Of a DNA stretch of 64,000 nt, positions 3,571-53,359 are shown piece after piece. Position 1 is the stretch's first letter, and each line of letters begins with the position of its first letter. A program made the position numbers and the translations under genes. The notes beneath the pieces were generated by a model. The model saw only the letters and a program-made list of their open reading frames with translations. It was not told where the DNA came from and ran no database searches. Source of the stretch: Emiliania huxleyi CCMP1516 (Eukaryota); the NCBI RefSeq assembly GCF_000372725.1, contig NW_005201318.1:293016-357015 (forward strand), read 5' to 3'.

Positions 3571-3572
3571 CC

Positions 3573-16433: not shown

Positions 16434-19400
16434 ATGGCCGGCAAGGTGGACGAGAATGGCGTCCTGTGGAACGCCAACCAGGCTCGCCACCACTGCTGAG
16501 CCCGCCTCCCCCAGTGCCGCCAGCCCCGCCGCGGCCATCGGCACCAGCACACATTTTGTTGCCGGACCTTTGTTTCCGGGCACCTCGCGCCACAGCCCGC
16601 CCAAATCTCGCAGGTCGGCGCCTTCTCTGATTGCTTCGGCGGGCACAAAAACCTTTGGGAGACGCTCGTCGCCTCGGCAGCGACGCACGGTCCCCTCCAG
16701 TGTGCGGGCGTGCGCAAGATTCTCGAAGTCGTGCCCGAGGGGGGCTTCGAAAAGCTGCGCATGGCGCCCAACTACGAGTGGATGACCTACTCCGAGTACT
16801 TCAAGACGGCCGACTCGCTCGGCGCCGGCCTCGCCGAGGCCATCCCCGGCCTAAAGGCGAACGACACGGTGGTCATCTACGCAGACACGCAGCGCGACTG
16901 GATGCTCGCTGCGTACGCCTGCTGGCGGCAGGGGTACGTCGTTGGGACGATCTACGCGACGCTCGGCGCCGAGGGCGCCGAGTACGGCATCAACCAGTCC
17001 GGCTGCAAGGCGCACGCGCCGCCCGTCCTGCACTTGGCGCTACGTGCAGCCCTCACCGCCCTGGCCGCGCCACGCCGTCGCCGCCTCACTCGCAGAAGCC
17101 CTCTTCCGCGCCTCCCACCATCACGAGCCCGCACACCGCCGACCGCTGCCCACCACCCACCCCACTGGCCGACGCTGCCTTGTGCAGGCGGTCGTCGCAG
17201 ACTCCAAGCTGCTCAAGATCCTGGCGGTGACTGCTCTTGAATAACCCCTGCAACCCGCTCAGTCTCTGATCTCCCCTCTCATTGAGCACTTCTATACACA
17301 CACTCGAAGTGGCCTTGTCGTGTGGAGGGAAGAGCTAGAATCGTCATCCAGGAGGGAACCACCCCCCCCCCCCCCCCTGTTTTTTTTTTTGTTTTTTTTT
17401 TCCCCCTCCTTTCTTTCTTCTTCTCTTTTTTCTCCTCCCTTCCTTTTTTCTTTTTTTTTTTCTTTCTTCTNNNNNNNNNNNNNNNNNNNNNNNNNNNNNN
17501 NNNNNNNNNNNNNNNNNNNNNNNNNNNNNNNNNNNNNNNNNNNNNNNNNNNNNNNNNNNNNNNNNNNNNNNNNNNNNNNNNNNNNNNNNNNNNNNNNNNN
17601 NNNNNNNNNNNNNNNNNNNNNNNNNNNNNNNNNNNNNNNNNNNNNNNNNNNNNNNNNNNNNNNNNNNNNNNNNNNNNNNNNNNNNNNNNNNNNNNNNNNN
17701 NNNNNNNNNNNNNNNNNNNNNNNNNNNNNNNNNNNNNNNNNNNNNNNNNNNNNNNNNNNNNNNNNNNNNNNNNNNNNNNNNNNNNNNNNNNNNNNNNNNN
17801 NNNNNNNNNNNNNNNNNNNNNNNNNNNNNNNNNNNNNNNNNNNNNNNNNNNNNNNNNNNNNNNNNNNNNNNNNNNNNNNNNNNNNNNNNNNNNNNNNNNN
17901 NNNNNNNNNNNNNNNNNNNNNNNNNNNNNNNNNNNNNNNNNNNNNNNNNNNNNNNNNNNNNNNNNNNNNNNNNNNNNNNNNNNNNNNNNNNNNNNNNNNN
18001 NNNNNNNNNNNNNNNNNNNNNNNNNNNNNNNNNNNNNNNNNNNNNNNNNNNNNNNNNNNNNNNNNNNNNNNNNNNNNNNNNNNNNNNNNNNNNNNNNNNN
18101 NNNNNNNNNNNNNNNNNNNNNNNNNNNNNNNNNNNNNNNNNNNNNNNNNNNNNNNNNNNNNNNNNNNNNNNNNNNNNNNNNNNNNNNNNNNNNNNNNNNN
18201 NNNNNNNNNNNNNNNNNNNNNNNNNNNNNNNNNNNNNNNNNNNNNNNNNNNNNNNNNNNNNNNNNNNNNNNNNNNNNNNNNNNNNNNNNNNNNNNNNNNN
18301 NNNNNNNNNNNNNNNNNNNNNNNNNNNNNNNNNNNNNNNNNNNNNNNNNNNNNNNNNNNNNNNNNNNNNNNNNNNNNNNNNNNNNNNNNNNNNNNNNNNN
18401 NNNNNNNNNNNNNNNNNNNNNNNNNNNNNNNNNNNNNNNNNNNNNNNNNNNNTTCCCCGGGGGTTTGCTTTTCCCTGGCGGCCCCCTCTTTTTCTCTCCT
18501 CCCCCCCCCCCCCCTCTTCCTCCGCAAGCTCCTCCCGACCCCTCCCCCCCCCCTCCTCCTCCGCAAGCTCCTCCCGACCCCCCCCCCCGCCACCGCGAGT
18601 CCCGCCAGTCACCCCCACACCACCCCCTTCACGGGAGGCGGGGAGGGGCGGCGCGGGGTCCAGAGTAACACGCGACTGCGGACTGAGGCGTGACAATGAC
18701 TGCTGTAGCTCGGCGACGTGGCCATCGTCGCGCCCTCCATCTTCGTCGCCGCACCGGCGGTGCTCGACAAGGTGTGTGACATTCGCGCGTGCCATAGTGC
18801 AGCGCGATTGACATTGGCGAGGCCGGCATACGCGCTCCGCACGGCCCAGCTACGCGCATTGGGCGCCAGCACGCGCTTGCCCTCCTCGCTCTCCCAGTAG
18901 CCCCCGAGGGCGAGGAAGTCCGGTCCGGGCGAGAGGAACGAGGAGCTGATCCCCAGGCCCCCGACCACGCAGGTTCTCGTCGGCATCAAGGCCAAGTTCG
19001 CCGCGCTGCCTGGAATCCTGCAGGGGCGCGTCAACGCCGCGATCGCCAACGGCAAGTGCGACTACGACTCGGGCGGCGTGGGCGCTCACTGGACGTACAT
19101 CATCGGCGAGTCCTCGCCCGCGATCCGGCCGAGATGCAGCCGAGATGCAGCCGAGCTCCAGCCGAGTTGCAGCCGTGATCCCGCCGTGAGCGAGCCGAGA
19201 CTATCGGCCGCGAGGACGCCCTCGGCCGCTCAGCCCCCGCCCCCCCCTTCTCTCCGCTGCCGCAGGCAACCTCATCTTCAAAAAGGTGCAGAAGCTGCTC
19301 GGCGGCAACGTGGAGCTGATGGTGACCGGCAAAGCGCCCTAGAAGCGGAAGACGGAGTCGTGTCCTCCAACCAGCGCTCGAGAGGACCCGCCCTCCGCTG

Positions 19401-20635
19401 TCGTCGACCGTATTCGTACCCCTCGCATTCACGCGGGGCTCTGAAGTCTCCGCACGAGACCGTTCTTCCCGCCCTGATGTCGGTGTCTTCACCCCGTAGG
19501 CTCGGCGCCCCTCGGCGCGGAGGTGCAGAAGTTTGTGCAGACCGTCTTCAAGTGCCGCGTGCGGCAGGGCTACGGCCTCACCGAGACGTGCGCGGCCACG
19601 TGCATCGCCCTCGCGAGCGACAACACCACGGCGCAGGTCGTGGCGCGCACAGCCCCCCTAAACACGCTGGGCTATGCAATGTCCCGCGTGCATCAAGCTG
19701 CGCGACTGGGAGGAGGCGAGCCGCTTTCCGAGACACTTCCAAGACACTTCCAAGGCACTTCCGAGGCACTTCCGAGGCACTTCCGCCGAGGCACGCTTAA
19801 ATGCCGTGGGGCTCCTGTCTTCTAGACGTGGAGTCGCGAGGGCTGCCTGGCCCTTGCCCCACCACCTCGTGTGTGGAGAAGTTCACCTTCCCTTCCCTCA
19901 CGCCCAGGGCGGCTACATGAACGCCGACAAGGACAACAAGGAGATCGGCATGCCCCGCGGCGAGATCCTCATCGGCGGGCCGGGCGTGTGCGACGGCTAC
20001 CTCGTCGACCCGGCCGCGCCGGACCCGGACGTGGTGGCGAAGAACCGCGACGAGTTCGTGACGATCGACGGCCAGCGCTACTTTTGCACCGGCGACGTCG
20101 GCCAGTACACGCCCGAGGGCAACCTGATGATCATCGATCGCAAGAAGGACCTGGTCAAGCTGCAGCAGGGCGAGTACGTCGCCCTCTCCAAGGTTGAGAA
20201 CGTGCTCAAGACGTCGCAGTACACGGCGCTGCCGATGGTGTACGCGCTTTCCTCGATGTCGTACTGCATCGCGCTCATCTGCCCAAACGAGGGCCCGCTC
20301 ATGAAGCTCGCGGCCTCGCTCGGCGTGTCGGGAGATCTCGGCGCCGTCTGCGAGGACGCAAAGGTGGTCGCCGCCGTGCTCAAGGACATCACCGCCGAGT
20401 GCAAGAAGGGCAAGCTCGCCAAGTTTGAGATCCCGACCAAGGTCATCCTCGTCGCCGAGCTCTGGACGCCGGAGAACGAGCTGCTCACGGCGGTGAGCGC
20501 TCGCCCCCCAGGGGGCGGGCTTCCACGGAGGCCGGGGCTCCCTGAGGGCACTGGCGGTGCGAATAGGTGCGCAAGCTCAAGCGGCGCGAGATCGTCGCGT
20601 GCCACAAGGCGCAGATCGACAAGTGCTACGTCTAG
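16434..20635 (+). CDS. Long-chain acyl-CoA synthetase (ACSL3/4-, LACS-like), multi-exon, spanning an N gap
   Basis: YEWMTY, VVIYADT..DW, TIYATLG, MVTGSAPL, QGYGLTETCA, PRGEILIGG, FCTGDVG, IIDRKKDLVKLQQGEYVALSKVE, WTPENELLTA|VRKLKR. Several GC-AG introns. The start codon is tentative. Confidence 0.93.
19329..19499 (+). mobile_element. Introner-like intron (family I) in the acyl-CoA synthetase
   Basis: Homologous from cctagaagcggaagac to ccctga..cggtg...cgtag with the kinase introns. Flanked by ggcaaagcgc/ggctcggcgc. Splicing restores TGSAPL. Confidence 0.8.
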
Positions 20636-20925
20636 GCGGCCGCGCCCTGGGCGAGCGGCCAGAACCAAAGTAGGAGTGTTCATTTGGCATGCGGGGAGTT
20701 TCCCCTCTTGCCTTGGACGGAGCGGGGACCCACCCTCGAGCGCGTGGGCTGCGGCGGCGGCCTGCGGGAGCGTGCCCGGGGCGCCCTCTGTTCCAGCTGG
20801 GTACTAGACTAACTTATGGCATTCATGCAGAGAACAGTGTGGTGAGAGCCCCACAAGTCAAGGTGGATTTTCAAACGGCCCCTCACTGTACGGTAGTTTG
20901 CCCGGCCGGCGGCGTCGATCGCAAC

Positions 20926-21951
20926 ATGTGCGGGCCGAACAGCGCCACAGCCTCGGGCTACAAGACGCAGGACCACCTGCAGCCGGCACCTGCGTCCGAG
21001 GCCGCCGATGGAGACCTGGTGGTTGAGGAATTCCCGATCAGCTTTGGTGGCTACACGTATCCACACGGCCGCATCGCCTACGTCAAGGGACGGCAGCCAA
21101 CCCCCGTCATCCTCGTCCACCACAACTACGCGGGCTGCAAGCGGTTTGACGTGGACCAGGCGGCGTACCTCGCGCTCTGCGGATACGTCGGGCTCGCGGT
21201 AGACTTATACCCGGAGTGCGAGATGTACACTTCAGCCGACCGCTCCGTGAACGTCGACAGGGCCCGCCACTTCAAGGGCTCGTTCGACTACATGCAGTCG
21301 CTTCTCGTCGACCCAGCGAAGTGGCGCTCGCTCATGGGCGCGTTCATGGCTGCGGCGGACGTACACCCCGCTGTGGCGGCCGGGAAAGCGGGCTGCATCG
21401 GCTATTGCCTCGGCGGCCAGAGCTGCTTCGAGCAGCTTCGAGCTGGTCACGCGATCCAGGCGCTCGTCTCGCTGCACGGGCTGCTCCACTCGCGGCCGAT
21501 GGTCGAGGGCCTCCCCTTTTGGGACCCGCTCCAGCGCATAAGTGCCGAGGAGTACGCGCAACGCATCCAGCCGCCGCCGAGCGCGATGACGCCTGGTTGC
21601 ATTGTGCTCGTCGAGAACGGAGCGGACGACGAGCACGTGCCGGAGGACATGCAGAAGGAGTGGATCAAGGAGATGGACGGCAGCGGGGTCGACTGGCGCT
21701 TCACCAACCATGCGCGAACGCCACACGGCTTTGCACTCGCCCCCGGCGTCGTCGCGACCTCGTACATGGAGGCGGCCGATCGTAGGTCGACCCTGTCGAT
21801 GCTTGGCGCGTTCGCAGAGGCATGGCCGCATGTCGAGCAGCACCATGTGACGCGCAACGCCTCGGGCACCATCATCCCCTACGCGATCCCCACCTCCGCC
21901 GAGCTCGCGCTGCCGATCAGCGCCATCGGCGATGCGAAGCCTCGGGGTTAG
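20926..21951 (+). CDS. Dienelactone hydrolase family protein
   Basis: GYVGLAVDLY, GCIGYCLGG (Cys nucleophile), VSLHG, NGADD, HGF. Confidence 0.88.
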   Translation: MCGPNSATASGYKTQDHLQPAPASEAADGDLVVEEFPISFGGYTYPHGRIAYVKGRQPTPVILVHHNYAGCKRFDVDQAAYLALCGYVGLAVDLYPECEMYTSADRSVNVDRARHFKGSFDYMQSLLVDPAKWRSLMGAFMAAADVHPAVAAGKAGCIGYCLGGQSCFEQLRAGHAIQALVSLHGLLHSRPMVEGLPFWDPLQRISAEEYAQRIQPPPSAMTPGCIVLVENGADDEHVPEDMQKEWIKEMDGSGVDWRFTNHARTPHGFALAPGVVATSYMEAADRRSTLSMLGAFAEAWPHVEQHHVTRNASGTIIPYAIPTSAELALPISAIGDAKPRG

Positions 21952-22071
21952 CTTCAGGGCTTGTGTGTTGGAAGGAGATCTGTTTTGATTAAGATTTCTT
22001 TCCCCCTTTTTCCTCGTCGCCATGTGCATGTGCATGCCCCTGCTAGGGTGCATGTGCATTTAACATCTGAC

Positions 22072-25000
22072 ATGCTCGCTCACACGCACGCACGCTGCGG
22101 CGCCAGCGACAGCGAGGCCGCGATTGTGCTCCTGCACGGCTTCCTGGGCGATCGGCGCGACGTCGAGCCGCTGCGCCAAAAGCTCGGCGCTCTCGCGGAC
22201 TGCATCAGCCTCGACCTTCCCGGGCACGGCGACAGTGCGTGGATGCCGACCATCGACGCTGGGACGTCCGCCGTTGACGCCGCGCTCGCGACGCTAGAGG
22301 CGCTGTGTCCGCCGCCTGCGCGGCTGCTGCTCGTCGGGTACTCGATGGGTGGCCGCGTGGCGCTCCAGCTGGCGGCACGCCTGCCGCCGCCTCGCCTCGC
22401 CGGACTCGTCATCCTGAGCGGTAGCCCTGGGCTGGACGACGGCGCGTTGCGCGAGGCGCGGCTCTCTCGCGACGTTGCCCTCGCCGCGCGGCTGCGAGCG
22501 ATGACCCCGCCGCACTTTGACGAGTGGCTGCGACGGGAGTGGTATCGTGCGGCCTTGTGGGGTGGCCGGCTGCAAGAACACCCCTCCTTTGAGCGAATGC
22601 TGCTCCGGCGCACCGACGGCGCTCAGCCGCGCGACCGCGCGGCGTCGCTCGAACGCGAGAGCGTGGGTCGGCAACCCTCGTGTTGGCCGTGGCTCGAGGC
22701 GCCGCCCGCGCCAGTCCTGTACGTCGCCGGCGAGGAGGACGAAGCCTACTGCAAGGTGGCGACGAGGCTGGCCGAGCACTCCGGCGGGCTTGCGAGAGGC
22801 GGAGAGGAGGCGTGGCGTCGACCAGCACTCACGATCGGCTCGACTTCCCTAGGCGTCGCCGAGCCGGTGGAGCGGCGGCTTGTGCGGGTGGCGGTGCTGC
22901 CTGCTGCTGGCCACGCACTTCTCACCGAGGCCCCTCACCCCACTAGCTTCGCAAACCGATCGGACCGCGCAAAACCGAGGCCTCGCAAACCGATCGGACC
23001 GCGAAGCCGTAGGCCTCCGCGCCCGTCGCTGAGATATGCCACGCCTTCGCGAGCCAAGTGCTGCCACCGCCGCTTGTGCCGGCGTCGCCGCCGCTATCGG
23101 AGGGCGTGCGGATTCAAGCGCGTGGGCCGGAAGGCGTCGACGCGCTGTCTGCGCGTCTGCTGCCGTTCCGCTTGCCGCTGACGGCGCGACGTTCCTCGCG
23201 TGCCCACCGACTCTGCTGCTTGGAGGCGACCTCTTCTGTCTGTTGCACAGGCGCCGCTGCCGCTCGCGCGCGGACCTCCCCTCTCGGAACGCGCCGGCGT
23301 ACTTCTACTTGTGGAAGGCAACGTTTCGCTGCCGTGCCCGCTCCGCCCGCGCGGCTCTCTCAGCCGTTCACGCGGTCGCTCAGGTATGGCCGCGGACGGG
23401 AGGGCGGTGCGTGGTTTGGGGGAGGTGTGCCCGCTTCCCGGGCGCGCGATGACGGCGGGCGCGCATGAAGGTGGCGGCGGGAGTGCCTGAATCGCCGAGG
23501 GGCGTGTTTGGCGTTAGGTTCCATAGCGAGAGCCTCGACGAGGCGGCGGCGCAGCTCCGTTCCGTCGCTCACCGGTTGCAAGGAGCTCTGCTGCCCTTTG
23601 CGGTCGCTCGGCTCGACGGCCCGCCTCTCATGTCCATGTACCCGCGGCGGCTGTGAACGGCGTCTCTTCACACCTCCAGCTGTGAACAGGCCCGACCGCC
23701 AAGCGAGGCTAGTTCGGACAAGGCAGCGGAACGGAGGGGCGGTGGTGGCCGCCCCGTAGGCTCGATGAGTGCTTGGCTCGCCGCGGCTTGCGATCGGCCG
23801 AGCAAGTTGGCTTTTGGGCCCTTGCTACCGAGCGTGCGCTGCGCACTCGAAATGGCGTGCCTGCATTTGCTCGCGCAAGCAGCCAACACGAGCATCGCTC
23901 AACTCGTCTGCTGTGCACGACGAGCGCCCTACCAGTCGCACGCGCGTCTCCGCAAGCCGGCGGAGCGGCCCCCGCAGCTCCGAAAGCTTGGGGGGCTATG
24001 CGCATAGGTCCGCATCAACGGGCTGCTCGCCAGGGGCGAGGCTTCCTCTCTCGAGGCGGCGGCAGACGCCGCAAGAGCAGCCGTTGATTCGGCGCGTCCC
24101 TCCTCTCGCGCCTGCGCTTCTGGACCGGCAGTGAAACACGCGGCAGCTCGCATGCGCACGTGGAAGGTCAAGGTGGGGGGAGGCAAGGCTGCGAGCGAGG
24201 ACGGAGCAGTGGCCGTTGCCACGCATCGAAACCTCGCCGGCCGGCCGTAGGTGAGCCGGCGTTCGCGGGGCCGTGAGTGGGGGTCCCCACCGATGCCCCT
24301 CTGACTACTGCACTTTTGTCTGTGTTGATGCCTTTCCCTGAGAACGCACAACACGCCTCGTGTGTAATGCCCCGTGTGTTCCGCGAGCGTGTGTGCCCCG
24401 TCGTCCGTGGTAGGACGTGTGTAACACTGACTGACTGACTGTAGGTGATCCGGCGGCAGACGGCCGCCGGATCGGGAAGCTGCTCCTCGGCTGCACGGCG
24501 CTAGGCGCCCGCCTCCGCCTCGACGCGAACCAAGCTTGGAGCAGAGAGCAGGCGGCATGTAGAGAGCCGTCCATAGCGAGATGACGCGACGCTCCTTCGA
24601 CAGCCCGCGGGCCGCGGAGATATTCAAGCCCCGAACGTTTGCACTTCTGTTGACTCTGCATTTCTGTGACTGCCAATCCTCTCTTGAGATTGCACACAAT
24701 GCCTCGTGTGTCCGCGCGTGTGCCCCCCCTGCTAGGACGTGTGTAACACTGACTGATTGATTGTCTGACCGTTGAGCAGGCGGCCACTTTCTGCGAGGCA
24801 ATGCAAACCGAGTGGGAGGCAGGGTGCGCCGCCCTCTGTCCCGAACACCAACGTGGCGACGGCGCCGGGGCGGTCTCCGCTCCAGCACCGCGTTGGCCGC
24901 CGCCCGCCCTCGATTTCTGCGAAGAGCCGCTGATGGCTCGGTTGCATGCGCAGTTGCCGGCGCTTCACGCCCAGTACGGTCTTCGACACGCCATCGACGA

Positions 25001-25597: not shown

Positions 25598-25800
25598 AAG
25601 CTGCGGCTCAGGTCGTGGGGCAAAGCTCGGGTGTAAACGGGGTATGGGGGCAGAAGCCCCAGCCGATTTTTTTACGTGGCCGGCGGGGCGCCCACGCCCT
25701 GGGCCAGCCCGCGGCTGGTCTGTACACTTCATACGTTAATGCACATTCACGTACGCGCCGCCGGTCTGTCATGGCCACGGTTCCAATTTCCATTCTCCAT

Positions 25801-28800
25801 TCACACGTATCCGTAAACGTAGAACTTGCACACCGTCAGCCCCGTCGCAGACGGCCGGTTGAGGTAGATGTAGCGCCCCAACGCGTTGATCTCCACCTCC
25901 AACATCACGTTCGACAACACGCTCACGTCTGACTTCACCAGCGCGTTGCCCGTGTACGTCTCTGCCGTCGTGCCGAGATAGATGTCAATGCCGGTCAGAC
26001 GATGTGGGCAGCAGTCGTTGCGGTTCTGCAGCCGCACGTAGCGCACATACACCTCGCTCCCGAGGTCGACGCCCCACCACTGGCTTGTGTATTGGCCGCA
26101 CTCGGCCCACGGCCGTCCCGTCGTGCTGTCGGCGTATGACAGGTCGCTCACGGGCGCCTGCTTGTCGAACAAGCTCGAGTCCTGGTAAGTGGTGGCGGCG
26201 CTGAGGTCGAGCAGCTGCACGTCAGGCGGCGGCGGCGACGGCGAGGCGGACGGCGGCGGCGGAGAGGGCGAGGCGGACGGCGGCGGCGCAGGAGGGTACC
26301 CCGGCGGGGCCGCCGGCGGGGCCGACGGCGGTGGCGAAAGCGGCGGCGGCGACGGCAGCGAGGGCGAGGCGGACGGAGGCGGTGGCGATGGTGAGGCGGA
26401 CGGCGGCGGGGGCGAGGGCGATGCCGAGGGAGGCGGCGGCGACGGCGACACGGATGCCGGCGGGGGTGACGGCGATGCTGGGGGCGGCGGGGGCGACGGC
26501 GATGCTGAGGGCGGCGGCGGAGATGGTGAGGCGGACGGAGGCGGCGGCGACGGCGACGCGGATGGCGGCGGCGGCGACGGCGAGGCCGACGGAGGCGGCG
26601 GGGACGGCGACGCGGAGGGAGGCGGTGGCGACGGCGACGCGGAAGGAGGTGGACCATTGCGATTTCCTGCGAAGACGTAGAACTTGCACACCGTCAGCCC
26701 CGCCGCAGACGGCCGGTTGAGGTAGATGTAGCGCCCCAACGCGTTGATCTCCACCTCCAACATCACGTTCGACAACACGCTCACGTCTGACTTCACCAGC
26801 GCGTTGCCCGTGTACGTCTCCGCCGTCGAGCCGAGATAGATGTCGACGTCCGTCAGCCGCTCCGCGCAGCAGTCGTTGCGGTTCTGCAGCCGCACGTAGC
26901 GCACATACACCTCGCTCCCGAGGTCGACGCCCCACCACTGGCTTGTGTATTGGCCGCACTCGGCCCACGGCCGTCCCGTCGTGCTGTCGGCGTATGACAG
27001 GTCGCTCACGGGCGCCTGCTTGTCGAACAAGCTCGAGTCCTGGTACGTGGTGGCGGCGCGGAGGTCGAGCAGCTGCACGTCAGGCGGCGGCGGCGACGGC
27101 GAGGCGGACGGCGGCGGCGGCGACGGCGAGGCGGACGGCGGCGGCGCAGGCAGGGCGGAGGGAGGCGGCGGCAGAGGCGGCGGCGGCGACGGCGAGGCGG
27201 ACGGCGGCGGGGAGGGAGAGGCGGAGGGAGGCGGTGGCGACGGCGACGCGGAAGGAGGTGGCGGGGAGGGAGAGGCGGAGGGAGGCGGCGGCGAGGGCGA
27301 CGCGGACGGAGGCGGCGGCGACGGCGAGGCGGAAGGAGGCGGCGGCGAGGGCGAGGCGGACGGAGGCGGTGGCGATGGTGAGGCGGACGGCGGCGGGGGC
27401 GAGGGCGATGCCGAGGGAGGCGGCGGCGACGGCGACACGGATGCCGGCGGGGGTGACGGCGATGCTGGGGGCGGCGGGGGCGACGGCGATGCTGAGGGCG
27501 GCGGCGGCGACGGTGAGGCGGACGGAGGCGGCGGCAACGGCGAGGCGGATGGCGGCGGCGGCGACGGCGAGGCCGACGGAGGCGGCGGGGACGGCGACGC
27601 GGAGGGAGGCGGTGGCGACGGCGACGCGGAAGGAGATGGACCATTGCGATTTCCTGCGAAGACGTAGAACTTGCACACCGTCAGCCCCGCCGCAGACGGC
27701 CGGTTGAGGTAGATGTAGCGCCCCAACGCGTTGATCTCCACCTCCAACATCACGTTCGACAACACGCTCACGTCTGACTTCACCAGCGCGTTGCCCGTGT
27801 ACGTCTCTGCCGTCGTGCCGAGATAGATGTCAATGCCGGTCAGACGATGTGGGCAGCAGTCGTTGCGGTTCTGCAGCCGCACGTAGCGCACATACACCTC
27901 GCTCCCGAGGTCGACGCCCCACCACTGGCTTGTGTATTGGCCGCACTCGGCCCACGGCCGTCCCGTCGTGCTGTCGGCGTATGACAGGTCGCTCACGGGC
28001 GCCTGCTTGTCGAACAAGCTCGAGTCCTGGTACGTGGTGGCGGCGCGGAGGTCGAGCAGCTGCACGTCAGGCGGCGGCGGCGACGGCGAGGCGGACGGCG
28101 GCGGCGGCGACGGCGAGGCGGACGGCGGCGGCGCAGGCAGGGCGGAGGGAGGCGGCGGCAGAGGCGGCGGCGGCGACGGCGAGGCGGACGGCGGCGGGGA
28201 GGGAGAGGCGGAGGGAGGCGGTGGCGACGGCGACGCGGAAGGAGGTGGCGGGGAGGGAGAGGCGGAGGGAGGCGGCGGCGAGGGCGACGCGGACGGAGGC
28301 GGCGGCGACGGCGAGGCGGAAGGAGGCGGCGGCGAGGGCGAGGCGGACGGAGGCGGTGGCGATGGTGAGGCGGACGGCGGCGGGGGCGAGGGCGATGCCG
28401 AGGGAGGCGGCGGCGACGGCGACACGGATGCCGGCGGGGGTGACGGCGATGCTGGGGGCGGCGGGGGCGACGGCGATGCTGAGGGCGGCGGCGGCGACGG
28501 TGAGGCGGACGGAGGCGGCGGCGACGGCGAGGCGGATGGCGGCGGCGGCGACGGCGAGGCCGACGGAGGCGGCGGGGACGGCGACGCGGAGGGAGGCGGT
28601 GGCGACGGCGACGCGGAAGGAGGTGGACCATTGCGATTTCCTGCGAAGACGTAGAACTTGCACACCGTCAGCCCCGCCGCAGACGGCCGGTTGAGGTAGA
28701 TGTAGCGCCCCAACGCGTTGATCTCCACCTCCAACATCACGTTCGACAACACGCTCACGTCTGACTTCACCAGCGCGTTGCCCGTGTACGTCTCTGCCGT

Positions 28801-31800
28801 CGTGCCGAGATAGATGTCAATGCCGGTCAGACGATGTGGGCAGCAGTCGTTGCGGTTCTGCAGCCGCACGTAGCGCACATACACCTCGCTCCCGAGGTCG
28901 ACGCCCCACCACTGGCTTGTGTATTGGCCGCACTCGGCCCACGGCCGTCCCGTCGTGCTGTCGGCGTATGACAGGTCGCTCACGGGCGCCTGCTTGTCGA
29001 ACAAGCTCGAGTCCTGGTACGTGGTGGCGGCGCGGAGGTCGAGCAGCTGCACGTCAGGCGGCGGCGGCGACGGCGAGGCGGACGGCGGCGGCGGCGACGG
29101 CGAGGCGGACGGCGGCGGCGCAGGCAGGGCGGAGGGAGGCGGCGGCAGAGGCGGCGGCGGCGACGGCGAGGCGGACGGCGGCGGGGAGGGAGAGGCGGAG
29201 GGAGGCGGTGGCGACGGCGACGCGGAAGGAGGTGGCGGGGAGGGAGAGGCGGAGGGAGGCGGCGGCGAGGGCGACGCGGACGGAGGCGGCGGCGACGGCG
29301 AGGCGGAAGGAGGCGGCGGCGACGGCGAGGCGGACGGAGGCGGTGGCGATGGTGAGGCGGACGGCGGCGGGGGCGAGGGCGATGCCGAGGGAGGCGGCGG
29401 CGACGGCGACACGGATGCCGGCGGGGGTGACGGCGATGCTGGGGGCGGCGGGGGCGACGGCGATGCTGAGGGCGGCGGCGGAGATGGTGAGGCGGACGGA
29501 GGCGGCGGCGACGGCGACGCGGATGGCGGCGGCGGCGACGGCGAGGCCGACGGAGGCGGCGGGGACGGCGACGCGGAGGGAGGCGGTGGCGACGGCGACG
29601 CGGAAGGAGGTGGACCATTGCGATTTCCTGCGAAGACGTAGAACTTGCACACCGTCAGCCCCGCCGCAGACGGCCGGTTGAGGTAGATGTAGCGCCCCAA
29701 CGCGTTGATCTCCACCTCCAACATCACGTTCGACAACACGCTCACGTCTGACTTCACCAGCGCGTTGCCCGTGTACGTCTCTGCCGTCGTGCCGAGATAG
29801 ATGTCAATGCCGGTCAGACGATGTGGGCAGCAGTCGTTGCGGTTCTGCAGCCGCACGTAGCGCACATACACCTCGCTCCCGAGGTCGACGCCCCACCACT
29901 GGCTTGTGTATTGGCCGCACTCGGCCCACGGCCGTCCCGTCGTGCTGTCGGCGTATGACAGGTCGCTCACGGGCGCCTGCTTGTCGAACAAGCTCGAGTC
30001 CTGGTACGTGGTGGCGGCGCGGAGGTCGAGCAGCTGCACGTCAGGCAGCGGCGGCGACGGCGAGGCGGACGGCGGCGGCGGCGACGGCGAGGCGGACGGC
30101 GGCGGCGCAGGCAGGGCGGAGGGAGGCGGCGGCAGAGGCGGCGGCGGCGACGGCGAGGCGGACGGCGGCGGGGAGGGAGAGGCGGAGGGAGGCGGTGGCG
30201 ACGGCGACGCGGAAGGAGGTGGCGGGGAGGGAGAGGCGGAGGGAGGCGGCGGCGAGGGCGACGCGGACGGAGGCGGCGGCGACGGCGAGGCGGAAGGAGG
30301 CGGCGGCGAGGGCGAGGCGGACGGAGGCGGTGGCGATGGTGAGGCGGACGGCGGCGGGGGCGAGGGCGATGCCGAGGGAGGCGGCGGCGACGGCGACACG
30401 GATGCCGGCGGGGGTGACGGCGATGCTGGGGGCGGCGGGGGCGACGGCGATGCTGAGGGCGGCGGCGGCGACGGTGAGGCGGACGGAGGCGGCGGCGACG
30501 GCGAGGCGGATGGCGGCGGCGGCGACGGCGAGGCCGACGGAGGCGGCGGGGACGGCGACGCGGAGGGAGGCGGTGGCGACGGCGACGCGGAAGGAGATGG
30601 ACCATTGCGATTTCCTGCGAAGACGTAGAACTTGCACACCGTCAGCCCCGCCGCAGACGGCCGGTTGAGGTAGATGTAGCGCCCCAACGCGTTGATCTCC
30701 ACCTCCAACATCACGTTCGACAACACGCTCACGTCTGAGTTCACCAGCGCGTTGCCCGTGTACGTCTCTGCCGTCGTGCCGAGATAGATGTCAATGCCGG
30801 TCAGACGATGTGGGCAGCAGTCGTTGCGGTTCTGCAGCCGCACGTAGCGCACATACACCTCGCTCCCGAGGTCGACGCCCCACCACTGGCTTGTGTATTG
30901 GCCGCACTCGGCCCACGGCCGTCCCGTCGTGCTGTCGGCGTATGACAGGTCGCTCACGGGCGCCTGCTTGTCGAACAAGCTCGAGTCCTGGTACGTGGTG
31001 GCGGCGCGGAGGTCGAGCAGCTGCACGTCAGGCGGCGGCGGCGACGGCGAGGCGGACGGCGGCGGCGGCGACGGCGAGGCGGACGGCGGCGGCGCAGGCA
31101 GGGCGGAGGGAGGCGGCGGCAGAGGCGGCGGCGGCGACGGCGAGGCGGACGGCGGCGGGGAGGGAGAGGCGGAGGGAGGCGGTGGCGACGGCGACGCGGA
31201 AGGAGGTGGCGGGGAGGGAGAGGCGGAGGGAGGAGGCGGCGAGGGCGACGCGGACGGAGGCGGCAGCGACGGCGAGGCGGAAGGAGGCGGCGGCGAGGGC
31301 GAGGCGGACGGAGGCGGTGGCGATGGTGAGGCGGACGGCGGCGGGGGCGAGGGCGATGCCGAGGGAGGCGGCGGCGACGGCGACACGGATGCCGGCGGGG
31401 GTGACGGCGATGCTGGGGGCGGCGGGGGCGACGGCGATGCTGAGGGCGGCGGCGGCGACGGTGAGGCGGACGGAGGCGGCGGCAACGGCGAGGCGGATGG
31501 CGGCGGCGGCGACGGCGAGGCCGACGGAGGCGGCGGGGACGGCGACGCGGAGGGAGGCGGTGGCGACGGCGACGCGGAAGGAGGTGGACCATTGCGATTT
31601 CCTGCGAAGACGTAGAACTTGCACACCGTCAGCCCCGCCGCAGACGGCCGGTTGAGGTAGATGTAGCGCCCCAACGCGTTGATCTCCACCTCCAACATCA
31701 CGTTCGACAACACGCTCACGTCTGACTTCACCAGCGCGTTGCCCGTGTACGTCTCCGCCGTCGAGCCGAGATAGATGTCGACGTCCGTCAGCCGCTCCGC

Positions 31801-33512
31801 GCAGCAGTCGTTGCGGTTCTGCAGCCGCACGTAGCGCACATACACCTCGCTCCCGAGGTCGACGCCCCACCACTGGCTTGTGTATTGGCCGCACTCGGCC
31901 CACGGCCGTCCCGTCGTGCTGTCGGCGTATGACAGGTCGCTCACGGGCGCCTGCTTGTCGAACAAGCTCGAGTCCTGGTACGTGGTGGCGGCGCGGAGGT
32001 CGAGCAGCTGCACGTCAGGCGGCGGCGACGACGGCGGCTGCGCAGCCCAGCACACCTGTAAGAGGGGGGGGGGGGGGGGGGCTCACTTGTTCCAGAGCAC
32101 CATTGCCAGGCCAGAGACGTGCGGCGCGGCCATGGAGGTCCCACTCTTCGAACCGTAGCCCGGGGGGCCGACCCCAGTGTAGCTCGGGGGGCCTAGGTAG
32201 GAGACAATGATCGCGTGAGAGCGGTGGGAGAGCGGCGGCGCTGCGGCCTTCTCGCACAGGGGTGGCACCGACAGTCGATTTGATGTCGACGCCTGGCGCT
32301 GCGATGTCGATCTCGTCGTTGTACTGCGAGAAGCTCGCCTTCTTGTCGTTGCTGTCGGTGGCGGCGACGCTCATGACCGAGGAGTAGGACGCCGGGTAAA
32401 AGTAGCTGCTATCTCCGCCGTTGCCGGCGGCCGCGATGCTGAGGATGCCGTCATTAAAGAATTTCTGGAAGGCATCACGCTCAAAGTCCGACGAAAACCC
32501 ACCTCCGAGCGACACTGCGGAAGGCCGGGGGGGGGGGGGTTAGATGAGTCAAAGACGGGTAGCGGATCTAGGCACGCTCACTCGAGAGGATCTTGGCTCC
32601 GCTGTCGACACATCGCTGAGCCGCATCGACGAGTGTTGAGGCATAGGTCCAGCCACACGCCTCATTCTGGTAGGGCGTGCTGGGGTCGTCGAGCAAGCCG
32701 ACCTCCCCAAACACCTTGACTATCTTCAGGTCAGGCGCGCCCGGATAGACACCGACCACTCCCTCCCCGTTGCCACCGACCGCGGCGATGGTGCCCGCGA
32801 CATGCGTGCCTGGTGGGACGGAGGGAGGGAGGGTGGGGTAGAGGGGGCGGACGGAGAGATGGCGGGGAGGGGATATGGCGGCGGAGAGGGCGGCGGAGAG
32901 GGCATGCGTGCCGTGGTTGCAGATGTCGTCGCCGAAGTAACGCGTGCCGGCTGGGTCAGCTTGGGACGGGTCCGCCGCGGTGGCGTCAGAGGGGAGGTCA
33001 GGGTGTGCGAGCAGGTAGCCAGAGTCGATGATGCACAGCGGATGCGTCACCGCCGACGGGAAGAAGGAGGCGTCCGGCACCGCTTCGTTGTACACACGCT
33101 CGATCCCCCATGGCATTTCCTCGGCTAGCTGCCGCTTCCGCGAAGCCGAGGCCGAGCTTGTTGCTAGGAAGCGCCGCTGATCCTCCTCGACCCTTAGCCC
33201 CGAGCGCTCCGCCTGGTCCTGGAAGGCTCGCGCCGTGCTGTTGTCCTCGAATTCGACCACTGTGAGGGTTTTGAGGGCTGCTTCGATTGTCTTCTTGACC
33301 TCTCCGCCCACAACATCCGCCATCTGCGCCACCTTGCTTGGAGCTCGCGCGCCACCCTTGGTCGTCGCCACGTTGGTCTGCTTTGCCTCGGTGACAACGT
33401 ACCGAATCTTGGGGGGGTTTGCGGGCGGGCTAGGCGGCTCTGTCGCGCGCGGGCGGCCTTTCGTGGCAGGCGCCGCCGCGGCGGACGCCAGCAGGGCAAG
33501 AAAGAGGCAAGG
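25801..33512 (-). CDS. Secreted subtilisin (S8) protease followed by seven F-type-lectin/discoidin-like domains with SPSPPPP linkers
   Basis: Signal peptide MPCLFLALLASAAAA, triad motifs IIDSG, HGTHVAGTIAA and GTSMAAPHVSG, plus AAGN and IAAPG. Seven copies of WWGVDLG...QNRNDCC..RL...GRYI...LTVC. Confidence 0.9.
25810..32020 (-). repeat. 987-bp coding tandem repeat (lectin domain plus Pro-rich linker)
   Basis: Identical shadow ORFs recur every 987 bp (27006, 27993, 28980, 29967, 30954). The last linker is shorter. Confidence 0.95.
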
Positions 33513-34568: not shown

Positions 34569-34569
34569 G

Positions 34570-36522: not shown

Positions 36523-37530
36523 GAGAGCAGCGGAGCAGCGCGACGTCAACAACGGCAGATGGAGCGGCGCGGAGGGCCGCGCTTGCCGCCGTAGCCCTGC
36601 GGGGCCGGGGCGCAAAGAGCGCCAACACTGAGGAGCGCCAACACTGAGGAGCATATCTAGCGCATGTGACATCCCATACCATATGTGAGTGACTTGATCC
36701 CGCGCAGCGGTTTATTGAGCTTTTATTTTTTATTATTTATTCCGAGAGAAAATTCAAACAATAAACTACAGGTCTACCTCTACGGCCGGGTCGTGGCCGA
36801 CGGCGGAGGGCTCCAGCAAGCGCCCACCTGGGCCCGACCTCTCCGCTCTCGCTCCGGCGCAAACGCGTGCCCGGCTGCCGCGCAAAGAACGGCCGCGACA
36901 GGCCGACAGCTGGACAGCGAAGACGCCTGAGAGGGAGGGGGGGGGGGTCAGAGAGCCACGGCCGTCGATCGGCGCGGCGGGGAAATGTCCCGGGGGTGTC
37001 CGGGAGATGTCCGGGAGAGTGTCCGGTTGTGCGCAGGCACGGGAAGTCGAGGGGCTGCGGAAGCGGCGGCTGGGGTGGCGGAGTGCCTCGTCCATCTCGA
37101 TCAGCCACTCCAGATCGCCATGGGCCAGCCGCCCGAACAGCAGCGGGGGGGGCGCCCTCGCCCGCGTCCATCACCTGCGAAGGCACGACGATGGGTCGGA
37201 GCAGGGTCCGCTCGATCGCGTGCGAGCCAGGGCGGCGGGTGGACGTGCGGGCGCGGTGCCCGTGGCTGGCGCTCGTGGGTCGGTGGGGGNNNNNNNNNNN
37301 NNNNNNNNNNNNNNNNNNNNNNNNNNNNNNNNNNNNNNNNNNNNNNNNNNNNNNNNNNNNNNNNNNNNNNNNNNNNNNNNNNNNNNNNNGGGGGGGGAGG
37401 CGGCTCAGAACCACAAGAATCATCCGCTCGGAGCGTCATCTGTCCCTATCTAACGAGTTGTTTGCTTCCTCATCGCCGCGGGGAGCAGGTGGACCGTGAG
37501 GCAGGTCGCTGTTGGCGCCGCGGCGGCGGC

Positions 37531-37581
<51 letters not shown>

Positions 37582-37593
37582 TGGGCGCGCGGA

Positions 37594-38233
37594 AAAAAAA
37601 ACTGTTCAGTTTTCAAAGGCAAAAACGTCAGCCTACGCCCTCCCCTCACACTGACACTTCTCCCCTATTCCCGTCTTTAGGTTGCGCACATCTCCCAGCG
37701 AGCTAGGTTCTCCGCTTTTTCTCCCCTAGTCATCTGCCCGCGCCGCGCGCCTCTATGGGCGTCTAGTGCAGCCACTGACAGAACTATTCCCGAGGAGTGG
37801 TCGACGTCTCGCCTGAAGTCGGGTGGGCTCGCGCACTGCTTAGCCCTAGGGGAGGGGTGTGTGTGAGGTGTCGGAATGGTAAGGTTTCAGGCCGCCAAGG
37901 TGTGGGGGATTTGGGGGATGAGTCAGGAGCCAGCAGCCTTCCTGATGGACCTGAGTTCACAGCTCCTCCGCCCGACGGGGTGGTCCCTTGGATTCGGGCC
38001 CCGCTCCCTTTTCCTGCGCCTGGTCTGTCCCTGTCAAGTGTGTGTTGCGAGATGCAGAGCTGGTTAGGCTGGAGCGCGGGCGGTGCGGTGGCAGGCGAGG
38101 GCAGCGCGGTAGGCGAGAGGCGGCCGCGGGGCTTCGAGTGGCGCGATAGGAGGGTAGGCTGGCTGTGGAGGGGCGCCGCGTGGCCTCGGAAAATAAGTAG
38201 TGCTTTATGAGCGGCCAGTTTCGTGCGTGCGGG
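37594..38233 (-). mobile_element. Family 'AB' element with a 13-bp TSD and a T-tract end
   Basis: Direct repeat gtgggcgcgcgga at 37581-37593 and 38234-38246. An A run on + (T run on -) abuts the conserved end aactgttcagttttcaaaggc. Confidence 0.8.
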
Positions 38234-38525
38234 GTGGGCGCGCGGAGCGATCACCTCCTCCCCGCCCCAGAACGCCGTCCGTAGAGCCTGAGCGCGAGCG
38301 ATTTTAGGATAATAGCTGGAGTCTGATAATCGCGGAATACCGAGGAGTCACCGCAGCACGCACTGAGAGGATGAGTAAGTGGCCACACACGTCACACGTG
38401 CGCACCGGACGCAGAGCAGTGCTGCAGCGCCACGGTACGCACTCACAACACACTAGACACCGCTCCAATAGCGCGGGGGAAGCATTTCGACACCCTGCAC
38501 GGTGGGCGCGCGGGTCCTCGCGCGG

Positions 38526-41500
38526 CTAGAGCGCGCCAATCTTGGGCGCCCCCTTCTTGACGACGGCCGCAAGCGCGTCGCTGCGCGCGCCGGCGACGAG
38601 TTTGTGCTTGAGCAACACGTCGGCCGAGGGGCGCGCGACGGCGTCCTTGACGAGCGCGCACCTCACGAAGTCGCGCAGCACGGGCGAGCCCTCCGCCTCG
38701 GGCGGCGGGTTGTTTACGATGGCGAGGATGATGTCGAAGACGGAGGAGAGGGAGGACCAGGGCGGCTTCATCGACATCAGCTCGATGGCAGTGATGCCAN
38801 NNNNNNNNNNNNNNNNNNNNNNNNNNNNNNNNNNNNNNNNNNNNNNNNNNNNNNNNNNNNNNNNNNNNNNNNNNNNNNNNNNNNNNNNNNNNNNNNNNNT
38901 GCTGTACACCTACGTGGTTTTTTTCCGCCAGCGTCAGGGCGGGGATGCGGTACTGTGCAGAGTACTCAGAGCACCGCGTGAATACGCCCGGCTGCGGTGG
39001 ATACCGCGGAAACCGCGAAATACGGTCGAGTCCAGTTGAGTACGTGCCCTTTGCGTCTCCCGCTTGTAGGGCTGAACACACCTGCGCCGCCACGCCGAGG
39101 TCGCCGAGCTTGACCGCACCTAAAAGGCCCAGCCACACACACGTGAGTCGCCTCGCTGCTCTCTGGAGGAGAGCGTCCACACGAGTGCGCTCCTGTTCAC
39201 AGCTGCAGGTGTGAAGAGACGCTGTTCACAGCTGTCCTCGCGTCCACACGAGTTCGCTCGGGCGGCGCCCGAGGCGGTCAGGAGCACGTTGGCCGCCTTG
39301 ACGTCGCGGTGGAGCGCGCGCAACTCGACGTGGAGGTAGCGCAGCGCGGTCAGCACCTGCGGCGGCGGGAGGCTTGGAGCGGGAGGGGCGGGAGAGCTGC
39401 ACGCACGTGGCGGGGGAGCCTCGCGGAGCACCAACGCCGCCTCCGCCTCGCTGAGGGGCGCGCCCTGCCGCTCCATGACGTCGAGCGCAGAGCCTACGTC
39501 GCGGACGCACCGAAGTCAGGGCGGGAAGACGGTCTCGTGCGGAGTATTCAGAGCACCGCGTCAGTACGAGGGGCTACGAATACGGTGAATACAGCGGAGG
39601 ACGGCCGAATACAGCGGAGTCCGTGTCCTCTCGAGCGCGGGTTGGAGTGCATGAATGCGCATCCTCTAGGGCACGAGATACGGGGAGAAACGGGGAGAAA
39701 CGGGGAGAAACGGGGAGATACGAGAATGCGCAGCCTCTAGGGCGCAGAGCCGAGCGCGCAATACTCGAGGACGATCCAGAGGAGCTCCTCGCCGTCGTGT
39801 AGCCGCGTGAAGTAGTCGTAGTAGCCGACGATGTTTGGGTGGCGCGCCTGCTCGAAGGCGGAGGGGATGCGGATGAGAGGGAGGGGGGGGGGCCCANNNN
39901 NNNNNNNNNNNNNNNNNNNNNNNNNNNNNNNNNNNNNNNNNNNNNNNNNNNNNNNNNNNNNNNNNNNNNNNNNNNNNNNNNNNNNNNNNNNNNNNNCAAT
40001 TTTGGGGGCCCCCTTTTTGACGAAGGCCGCAAGCGCGTCCCTGCGCGCCCCGGGGAAGAGTTTGTTCTTGAGCAACACTTCGGCAGAGGGGCGCGCGACG
40101 GCGTCCTTGACGAGCGCGCCCCTCCCGAAGTCGCGCAGCACGGGGGAGCCTTCCCCCTCGGGCGGGGGGTTTTTTTCGATGGCGAGGATGATTTCGAAGA
40201 CGGAGGAGAGGGAGGACCAGGGGGGTTTTATCGACATCAGCTCGATGGCAGTGATGCCAACCCCCCAGATGTCAACCTAAAAAATGGGCGAGCGCCGGAA
40301 GCGGTGTGGCACGACACCGCACACTTGCGACGGCGAGGAACCGCTCCCTCGGACCCCCCCCCCCCCCCCCCTCCCCCTCCTAATCCCTCTCTCGCCTTGT
40401 TGTCGTACGGATCGCCATCAATGGCCGTCACAGCCGCAAACGCCTCCGGCGCCATCCAATGCGGCGTGCCTAACGACATGACGTGGACGTGTCGTGGACG
40501 CGGCATGCCTTCTCGGGTGCGTCTCCGTGCGGCGTGCAACGTGCCGATCATCGTGCCGCGCTTCGCCATGGTGCTGTACACCTACGTGGGTTTTTTTCCG
40601 CCAGCGTCAGGGCGGGGATGCGGTACTGTGCAGAGTACTCAGAGCACCGCGTGAATACGCCCGGCTGCGGTGGATACCGCGGAAACCGCGAAATACGGTC
40701 GAGTCCAGTTGAGTACGTGCCCTTTGCGTCTCCCGCTTGTAGGGCTGAACACACCTGCGCCGCCACGCCGAGGTCGCCGAGCTTGACCGCACCTAAAAGG
40801 CCCAGCCACACACACGTGAGTCGCCTCGCTGCTCTCTGGAGGAGAGCGTCCACACGAGTGCGCTCCTGTTCACAGCTGCAGGTGTGAAGAGACGCTGTTC
40901 ACAGCTGTCCTCGCGTCCACACGAGTTCGCTCGGGCGGCGCCCGAGGCGGTCAGGAGCACGTTGGCCGCCTTGACGTCGCGGTGGAGCGCGCGCAACTCG
41001 ACGTGGAGGTAGCGCAGCGCGGTCAGCACCTGCGGCGGCGGGAGGCTTGGAGCGGGAGGGGCGGGAGAGCTGCACGCACGTGGCGGGGGAGCCTCGCGGA
41101 GCACCAACGCCGCCTCCGCCTCGCTGAGGGGCGCGCCCTGCCGCTCCATGACGTCGAGCGCAGAGCCTACGTCGCGGACGCACCGAAGTCAGGGCGGGAA
41201 GACGGTCTCGTGCGGAGTATTCAGAGCACCGCGTCAGTACGAGGGGCTACGAATACGGTGAATACAGCGGAGGACGGCCGAATACAGCGGAGTCCGTGTC
41301 CTCTCGAGCGCTGGTGGGGATAGATGAGTCTGTCTTCCGCTTCTAGGCTCCCATGCCCATATCTCCCCATATCTCCCCATATCTCCCCGTATCTCCCCGC
41401 TTCTAGGCTCCCATGCCCATATCTCCCCATATCTCCCCATATCTCCCCATATCTCCCCGCTTCTAGGCTCCCATGCCCTGCCCGAGCTTCTCCTCGAGCT

Positions 41501-43657
41501 CCACGCCGCCGTACGCCGACTCATCCGCCGTCCGGCTGGCGAGAGCCTTTGCGCGCGCCTTCTCATCGCTCCGCCGCCGCTTCGCTAGCGTGGCTGACGC
41601 CTCGCCACCATCGCCCGCCCACGGCGCGGCTGGCTGTGTGCCGCCCGGCAAGATCGTGGTGTCGCCATTGGCCACGGGCGGCCGGCTGTCAAGAGCGGCA
41701 ACCACCTGGTCCTTTGGCGTGTGGGGCACCGCCACCGGCTTGCCGCTCCCCACCGCCGGCTTGTTCACGGCGCTCAGGTTGAGCTTGAACCCCGTCGACG
41801 AAGACGACTTCTTCTGCAGCGGCGGCGCGGCGGCGGCGGGCGCGGCGGCGGCGAAGCCGCCCGATGCCTCGAGCGCCTCGAACGACTGTTTGTTCGAGAT
41901 GCGCCACGCCTCGCGCTGCAGCCCCTCTGGCGAGTTGCGGTCGTACGGCGCCTCTGGCAGCGCGTAGGCCACCGCGCGCGCCTCTAGCTCCGTCAGAGTG
42001 CCGTCGATCTGGAGCGGCTTGAGGACGGCCGCCTTTGCAATGTCGAGCTGCGCGCGCGTGGCGCGGAGCATGCGCAGCGCCGGCCGGTCTAGGATCGCCC
42101 GCGCCAGCTCGGGCGAGCAGCCAACCTTCTCGAGCCCCTTTTGGTCCTTGGGCTCCACCAAGCCGACCTGGTGAGATATGGTGGGATATGGTGAGATATG
42201 GGGAGATATGGGCAGCCGACCTGGTGAGGTCATGAGCACAACCAGGGTGAGGGTGGGAGTACGGGTCCGGTCTGGTGCAGAGATGTCGGAGCACCGCGTG
42301 AATACGAGGGCTGCGCATACGCGGATGCAGCCGAGAGCACAGCGGAAGACAGCGAGATATGGGGAGATATGGGGAGATATGGGGAGATATGGGGAGATAC
42401 GGTGGAAGACAGCTGGATGCGTCTCCTCTCGAGTGCGACTTGGGATACAAGAGTGCGTGTTGAGCCGCACGTGTATCACACATATCCCGCTGTACGCCGC
42501 TTCTAGCGGAGGCCTTGTCGGGGATGCGGCTGCGCAACTCGAAGTAGGCGGGGCGGTTCAGCTCGAGGTTGCGCTGTCGCGCGCCCGCTTCCTCCTGCGC
42601 CAACTTGCGCTGCACGCCCGGGTGCCCCTCGTACTTTGCGAGCACCGCTTGGAACTCGGCCGCCTGCGGAGCATGGCTGGGAGAGGTCATGCGCGGGCGC
42701 GCGTTCTTCTCCCTCCCACCCCTCACCCCAACCCGGCAACCACAGCCAAGAGCCAGGTCTGGGGCTGAGCATGGTCGCAATGATACAAAGGGCTGGGGCT
42801 CATGGTGGGGTGGGGGAGGTCCCGCCCTCTGTGCCCCCCTCTCCATCCTCGCCTCGGCCGGCGCCGCTGGGAGAGGTCATGCGGGCGTGGTGGCGGAGAG
42901 GGCGGGGGCGGGGGGGACGGCGACGGAGCTGGTGGTGGCGGAGAGGGAGGTGGAGGTAAGGGCGGAGGACTTGGTGGAGGTGGAGACGGCGGTGGTGGGG
43001 ATGGTGGTGGCGGAGAGGGTGGTGGCTGGTGCGGCGGCGGAGGCGCGGACGGTGGCGGGGACGGCGGTGCATCTTCCCGCCCTCTCTGCCCCCCTCTCCA
43101 TCCTCGCCTCGGCCGGCGCCGCTGCCGCCGCCTCGCGCAGCATGTCTTCCATGCGCATCGTGGCGACGTAGTCGGGCGGCTCGGGGGGCGCCCGGACGTT
43201 GCCGGCGGGCCGCCCGCCCTTGTTCGGCGGGGTGGCCGACGCACCCGTCACCATGCGCACCGGGTTGGGCACGTTGGCGTTCTGGTCTTTGGGCGGCGGC
43301 TTCCACTTTGGGCGCTCCGCAGCAGGCGCCCCCCCCTCGGGGACCCACTGGGGGGTCGCGGCACCCTTGGCAGGCGACGCAGCCGTCTTGCGGCCGCCGA
43401 TCCAGCTCTTCTTCTTCTGCAGCGCCGGCTCGGACTGCGCGGGCGGCGGGCGGGCGGGCGGCGGCGCGGCGGGCCCCGCCGCGGCCGCAGCGCTCGGGGG
43501 CGCCAGCTTGGACTTGGCGCGGCCCGGCGCCTTTGGCCGGTTGAGCTGGGCCGTCTCGACCTCCCCGGGGGAGCGGTCTGCCGCTGCCGTGTACTCGTTA
43601 AAGACCCACGCCGGCACCGTGCCGCCCGTGATGGCGGCGATCGGCTTGTCGTCGCTG

Positions 43658-51695: not shown

Positions 51696-51730
51696 CGCGC
51701 CCTTTTGTGGAAAGAAAATAAATTCCTGCG

Positions 51731-53358: not shown

Positions 53359-53359
53359 A

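Follow-up and report, generated by a model that had tools for sequence, protein, structure and literature searches.

A ~180-bp repeat family forming whole introns in Emiliania huxleyi genes, probably derived from a non-autonomous DNA transposon

The stretch analysed here (the window) comprises 64,000 nucleotides of Emiliania huxleyi CCMP1516 (contig NW_005201318.1, positions 293,016 to 357,015 of the forward strand) and contains a long-chain acyl-CoA synthetase (ACS) gene on the forward strand and a kinase gene on the reverse strand. One ACS exon matches the CCMP1516 gene model P0001 with 100% identity. Introns of both genes consist of copies of one repeat of about 180-181 bp, which is a genuine family forming whole introns in unrelated E. 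huxleyi genes. A core motif built from the window copies occurs six times in the window, against 0.01 expected, and these matches reduce to five insertion sites in the two genes. Four of the five were found again among metagenome loci (L017, L028 twice, L029/L052). The copies and their flanking repeats are as follows, in window positions:

19329..19499 (+): copy A, a GC-AG intron in phase 1 of the ACS gene; element body from 19338, junction as in the intron-free record P0002, same site in L017, match to the family hidden Markov model (HMM) with E 7e-41
19329..19337 (+): upstream 9-bp direct repeat of copy A, intronic, read as the donor G plus an 8-bp duplicated target; 6/9 identical to 19500-19508
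19500..19508 (+): downstream 9-bp direct repeat of copy A, exonic, G19500 being likely the last base of the element
39494..39750 (-): copy C, a GC-AG intron of the kinase gene with a duplicated 5' end and a 10-bp microsatellite at 39675-39722 (TRF); 9/9 direct repeat, in-frame join, same site in L028
40582..40754 (-): copy D, a diverged GT-AG intron of the kinase gene with a 2-nt insertion in the upstream repeat; join AAQ/VYSTM, same site in L028
38910..39081 (-): copy D', a second assembled copy of copy D (allele or assembly duplicate) and no independent site; kinase stretches identical at 579/594 bases
41167..41476 (-): copy B, a chimera joining the 5' half of the copy in the intron after LGQG to the last 145 bp of copy C; a 60-bp duplication (x2.4) lies at 41337-41478
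42168..42513 (-): copy E, the most diverged, a GC-AG intron in phase 0 that carries 10-bp microsatellites and has its 3' end duplicated; 70% identity to the consensus, in-frame join, same site in L029 and L052

An earlier, sequence-only reading of this DNA had aligned the ACS intron 19329-19499 (+) from end to end with minus-strand kinase introns, and BLASTN (E 2e-26), alignment and the HMM all bear this out. The flank matches that it gave, 7/10 in ACS and 10/10 at 39494-39750, are exact, as are its joins across the introns (MVTG/SAPL, as in P0002, and ALG/SAL). Of its five copies, two have a clean repeat in register; the repeat is broken in 40582-40754 by the 2-nt insertion, in 42168-42513, where the flanking repeat matches at 3/9, and in 41167-41476, which had been taken for an intact insertion. 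The flanks of this last copy match at 3/9, its final 145 bp are identical to copy C (39494), and its join LGQG/SALDV leaves out the exon for Pkinase positions 56-81; the copy reflects either a deletion allele, formed by deletion between two copies, or a mis-assembly. Exons of the kinase domain are assembled twice around N gaps (38525-41480, -), with a low-quality stretch at about 40000-40270. The ACS exon that reads VGPPQMSA in L017 and P0002 has a garbled, longer form at 19637-19680, likely through low-quality sequence or a broken allele. A 22/27 match at 32581-32607 was discarded as a family copy, the HMM finding no match there.

Beyond the window, a single scan of metagenome contigs with the exact core motif yields 57 loci with 58 matches. 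The family HMM, trained on 16 clean copies and giving a 180-column consensus, extends the match past the motif in 56 of the 57; L038 has no such extension and was rejected as a chance match. Six further copies lacking the motif are found by the HMM in L004, L005, L006, L055 and L057 (two), and together with a second match in L028 these make seven neighbouring copies, all oriented like the focal copy (7/7). Sixteen of the 57 loci were removed: 14 that duplicate a site already represented, L032, which nearly duplicates L014, and the chance match L038. Also excluded were L002, L009, L016, three incomplete neighbours and the chimera 41167-41476, and the window copy stands for L029. The resulting curated set holds 42 insertion sites in unrelated genes. 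At each, the intron consists of the ~180-bp element plus a locus-specific duplication, with intron lengths of 147-397 nt. Hosts include ACS, kinesin, kinase, SWEET, TRM5, PDE, MFS_5 and RNB genes (Pfam scan of 65 fragments, most without a match). The core motif has no match in viral contigs, and the 5' block of the element none in viral contigs or prokaryote genomes; a 16-nt end motif matches viral contigs 11 times, all by chance and without extension. Introners have been defined by similarity between introns of non-paralogous genes that stops no more than about 10 intronic bases short of either splice site (PMC9860276), and the 42 sites conform to this, with HMM similarity running from intron base 10 to the acceptor.

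The donors at the 42 sites are GC (22), GT (13) and GA (7). Reading frames predicted independently on the two flanks agree at 38/42 junctions (permutation mean 14.6, maximum 28). In L003, L019 and L041 the Pfam profile runs without a break from one exon into the next, and in every Pfam-recognised host gene the element lies in sense. Two records can be taken as transcripts because their contigs are too short to contain the introns: P0002 (ACS, 686 aa, 2365-bp contig) reads MVTGSAPL, the predicted GC-AG join, and P0125 (kinesin, 969 aa, 3255-bp contig) reads YLMEPCLS, the predicted GA-AG join. At the kinesin site the sole register with an AG acceptor carries the GA donor. Splicing at the element boundaries, a further mark of introners, is thus seen at two junctions through intron-free records and accords with the frame agreement. 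For the absence of the intron position from outgroup orthologues, another mark of introners, the evidence is indirect: the ACS relatives P0040 and P0041 (59% identity) look like open reading frames read from genomic DNA and are unbroken at TGSAPL. The reference gene models do not follow these joins: P0001 (ACS) mis-splices the element, skipping the motif, and P0123 (kinesin) keeps 11 intron-encoded residues and apparently splices within the element. Surveys based on annotated introns may therefore miss decayed families. A further record, P0124, reads into a diverged element copy at the same kinesin site.

The duplication flanking the element was measured in two ways. In a blind, rule-based test, 64 oriented hits were reduced to 35 sites (15 dropped because an end or flank was missing, 14 merged), with the AG assigned to the element; in this set L018/L019 were merged with L016 in error, and several ends were misplaced. 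Flank identity is in excess at length 9 (0.565 versus 0.343), lengths 4-8 and 10-13 showing none, and positions 3-9 match in 136/245 comparisons (permutation mean 74.5, maximum 101 in 10,000). Such a fixed-length target duplication is a mark of miniature inverted-repeat transposable elements (MITEs). Among the curated sites, 32/42 can be compared without an indel and match at 166/224 positions (74% repeat identity). As a control, ten introns outside the family, from the ACS and kinase genes, match at 27/70 (p=1e-7 versus the curated set). The first exon base after the acceptor is G at 41/42 sites. The base following the 9-mer is C in 24/32 upstream copies and matches downstream in 17/32 (p=0.008); because it is mostly C upstream and the downstream matches are so few, it is assigned to the element. 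A 10-bp duplication shifted rightward to include this C was rejected on the same count.

These data bear on the geometry first proposed: a 10-bp target duplication starting with GGY, ends that are not inverted, and an acceptor in which the last A of the element is joined to a G of the target. The last exon base, which precedes the donor and would be the first of the ten, is G at 28/42 sites and at 11/11 phase-1 sites, and its match rate (20/32) is not significantly under that of positions 3-9 (p=0.10). Against this, A, C or T precedes the donor at 14/42 sites, 8 of the 14 being second codon positions, and a G there would change a residue in DLT/PTA (L010) and YAN/DLNP (L030), which we take to be conserved motifs. 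Ordinary introns carry G at this base in 10/10 cases, so that it is a feature of the donor and not a duplicated base. Inverted ends are, moreover, present (12/17, see below). The first geometry is hence highly improbable: the repeat is 9 bp long, the element itself supplies the AG, and C, T or A may come after the target G, 7/42 donors being GA. The core inference, that the element generates introns and leaves a single target copy once spliced out, holds on the 42 sites.

Intron gain itself may be questioned, for a repeat could have been inserted into, or have converted, older introns, or 10-bp microsatellites could have converged. Many copies do carry 10-bp microsatellites and duplicated ends, the middle of the element is a degenerate decamer array, and the identity of the copies in L042 and L045 (below) hints at conversion. 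Yet similarity covers 180 mostly non-repetitive columns, beginning at intron base 10 and ending with the acceptor, and at family sites the next exon is repeated in intron bases 1-9, which is not clearly so in the ten control introns. An origin without intron gain is accordingly extremely unlikely. The microsatellites seed at the element ends and duplicate terminal segments (window 41337-41478, 39675-39722, 42169-42211 and 42354-42399; L004, L019, L030, L053, L055); in L022 they replace the 5' third of the element, and the 9-bp repeat is retained.

The ends of the element point to its class. No terminal inverted repeat had been visible to the sequence-only reading. With the G after the acceptor added, the ends of the 43-copy consensus pair at 12/17 positions (CCTA...TAGG), a value equalled in 96/200,000 shuffles; this is an imperfect form of the terminal inverted repeat that marks MITEs, and pairing stops after 17 bp. 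A word GAATAC/GTATTC is placed symmetrically near both consensus ends, and more GTATTC-like words at consensus positions 53, 63, 73, 83 and 92 form an array with ~10-bp spacing. Elements of the hAT type have an 8-bp duplication, YA...TR termini and short inverted ends with subterminal repeated words, whereas Mutator-like elements (MULEs) have a 9-bp duplication, G-starting termini (GR...YC) and usually long inverted repeats. The family resembles hAT MITEs in its short inverted ends with subterminal repeated words and, should its duplication be 8 bp, in that length, and differs from them in its CC...GG ends. A 9-bp duplication, if such it is, would be shared with MULEs, whose ends start with G instead of C and whose repeats do not usually stop after 17 bp. 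The A/T dinucleotides of the element peak at 10.25 bp (80/5000 permutations in band, 607/5000 for any period). A nucleosome-positioning idea was dropped, since no period is found outside the decamer array (2109/5000); only the suggestive intron length of ~190 nt remains.

A spread through RNA, either of an element like a short interspersed element (SINE) or of reverse-spliced intron RNA copied by the reverse transcriptase of a long interspersed element (LINE), would also place copies in genes. Read by eye, the window at about 47600-51700 (-) resembles a LINE, with coding sequence like that for reverse transcriptase and RNase H; the element of the present family ends at the acceptor or one base beyond, all copies seen within a gene share one orientation, and the inverted ends are imperfect. 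The marks of SINEs and non-long-terminal-repeat elements (A-rich or simple-repeat tail, variable duplication, tRNA/5S/7SL head) are not found, however: the duplication length is fixed, the consensus lacks an A-tail, Rfam gives no match in the seven family loci examined, and folding as DNA gives no signal (-23.8 versus -23.6 +/- 3.5 in shuffles). Furthermore, the first nine intron bases copy the local exon and not a source intron. RNA-based spread is very unlikely on this evidence.

The copies are thus best read, with good though not complete confidence, as a non-autonomous cut-and-paste DNA transposon, a MITE-type introner, whose sense insertions at G-[C/T/A] became introns. A putative transposase would cut the target with an 8-bp stagger, and the insertions that survive would be those in sense orientation whose left junction is a G followed by C, T or A. 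This G and the next base would then serve as the donor (GC, GT or GA), and the AG belonging to the element as the acceptor. The terminal G of the element would take the place of the target G in the mRNA, leaving the protein unchanged. The 9-bp direct repeat is likely an 8-bp target duplication plus this terminal G. By the terminal symmetry the first exon G belongs to the element, and the 8-bp stagger is moderately preferred on that ground; a stagger of 9 bp, in which the element would end at AG, keeps an appreciable, lesser share because G is near-invariant on both sides.

Several observations weigh against the transposon origin or the sites on which it is built. Single copies pair only 5-10 of 15 terminal bases, and the CC...GG ends fit neither hAT nor MULE termini. 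Longer copies with the same ends that encode a transposase had been envisaged; neither these nor an autonomous partner are seen in the window, viral contigs or prokaryote genomes. Sense beats antisense in codon score at only 35/42 sites, transcript-type support covers two junctions (P0002, P0125), and a search for homologues of the kinase found nothing. The curated ends were picked with the flanks in view; 10/42 of these sites need an indel, 4 of the remaining 32 match at 5/9 or worse, and the blind set exceeds the control introns at p=0.015 only. The metagenome contigs are probably a gene-biased sample. Lastly, the element copies in L042 and L045 are 95% identical at unrelated sites, with decayed flanking repeats (7/9, 6/9), which a single old burst does not account for; gene conversion, a late jump or an assembly artefact may be involved.

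Apart from this pair, the family appears old. Median identity to the consensus is 79% outside the motif, near the identity of the flanking repeats (74%), and median pairwise identity is 69%. A tree of 37 copies is star-like, with 83% of its length in terminal branches. At the rates given in PMC7486954, the age is about 4.8-7.1 Myr, a likely overestimate that assumes neutral decay from one source. This suggests one old burst, roughly 5-7 Myr ago, of a family now inactive, and it was probably in that burst that the element spread through coccolithophore genes; the estimated age lies far beyond the ~290-kyr origin of the species. The exact motif detects a minority of copies (0/6 neighbours), the best other element block matches 10/43 copies, and the 5' pattern matches five motif-positive sites; the ~42 motif-positive sites therefore correspond to roughly 200-300 copies or more, as a rough lower bound. 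Copies seem to cluster, seven neighbours lying within ~39 kb of flank and four sites falling in one kinase gene. Local hopping was rejected as a cause, same-gene pairs being no more alike than average (percentiles 0.04-0.92).

Other repeats occur in the window. A third repeated intron family of at least 120 bp, with 77-89% identity between unrelated genes, is present at 19790-19907 (+) and in L005 (two), L014, L009 and L004; the second, of ~41 bp, is described below. About six ~1-kb tandem units, each a globular domain with Pro/Ser-rich linkers, adjoin a subtilase-like region at 25790-32050 (-), and a dispersed non-coding repeat of ~300-500 bp has three copies, in both orientations, at 3550-3870, 37590-38170 and 53340-53800; both were read by eye.

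The family had been offered as an explanation for the many GC donors of this DNA, and it does not suffice. Eight of ten non-family introns in the same two genes have GC donors with no clear duplication (27/70), and the estimated hundreds of family copies would account for at most about 1% of the 73,358 donor sites reported in PMC4028052. That report gives E. huxleyi donors as GC 56%, GT 40% and GA 4%, ascribes them to GC content, and already lists GA donors at 11/241 curated junctions, one verified by reverse transcription PCR (PMC4028052). All ten non-family introns checked (16482-20566; 40277-41092) have G as the last base of the upstream exon and as the first base of the next; one of the non-family introns, at 40470-40544, repeats 7/9 bases across the intron. 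As a tentative idea, rather less probable than its opposite, the splice code of the species could be a fossil of successive transposon waves whose donors came from G-[C/T/A] targets, a convergence with the pattern of dinoflagellates. If so, the present family (GC 22, GT 13, GA 7) would be one half-decayed wave and the ordinary introns resuming with G (10/10) older ones. At least two more repeated-intron families are found in its flanks. A transposon origin of the GC-majority donors thereby becomes testable. The family adds an old, probably uncatalogued introner to a model bloom alga and offers a concrete route to GC-AG and GA-AG introns in haptophytes; as its splice geometry is already described in the dinoflagellate Polarella, the surprise is limited.

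Introners have been reported in E. huxleyi before (PMC9860276, PMC12130899), apparently not including this ~180-bp family. Tables S5/S6 of PMC9860276 list 653 introners in five CCMP1516 families of 37 or 70 bp, and Dataset S2 of PMC12130899 three E. huxleyi families of 37-69 bp from splice site to splice site. The listed families share with the present one the species, the repetition of whole introns and the use of GT and GC donors, and fam24 is listed as 'co-opt 5', carry 3''. They differ in having 0% GA donors, duplications of 2-4 bp or unresolved, and terminal inverted repeats entered as 'N' or '?', whereas here the introns measure 147-397 nt and seven donors are GA. Among the papers listed in the literature searches, none describes a ~180-bp E. 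huxleyi family; the search covered papers, with consensus FASTA files, Repbase and Dfam outside its scope. The family is thus probably uncatalogued, being set apart from the listed ones by length and features, not by a comparison of sequences. The second repeated intron element measures ~41 bp and has direct repeats of ~10 bp at its ends; it lies at window 23650-23690 (+), 40865-40905 (-) and 39192-39232 (-) and in L024, L036, L053, L016, L005 and L030. Duplicated exon sequence of 25-30 bp flanks this element in L024, L036 and L053. It probably belongs to the published 37/70-bp families and fits the entry '10bp terminal direct repeats' of fam24.

In other lineages, Phaeocystis introner families are listed at 183-202 bp, the listed length being the sole point of comparison. 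IE1 of Micromonas pusilla differs in its 3-bp duplication and in carrying the donor, and the Aureococcus example adds 12 nt to the mRNA, whereas the E. huxleyi family adds none (PMC11282704, PMC9860276). The closest likeness is found in the introner-like elements of Polarella glacialis, compared by description. Classes 6, 8 and 10 have 8-nt duplications, and in one mode of class 1 the donor consists of the pre-duplication base and the first duplicated base, with the acceptor formed by the second- and third-last bases of a TAAG or TAGG end (bioRxiv 10.1101/2020.10.14.339549). Unlike the E. huxleyi family, which is ~20% decayed and seen in one orientation, the Polarella classes are described as young (0.9-3.8% tip length), and classes 1, 6, 8 and 10 intronise in both orientations. 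Although the lineages differ, the geometry favoured here matches that class 1 mode and resembles classes 6, 8 and 10.

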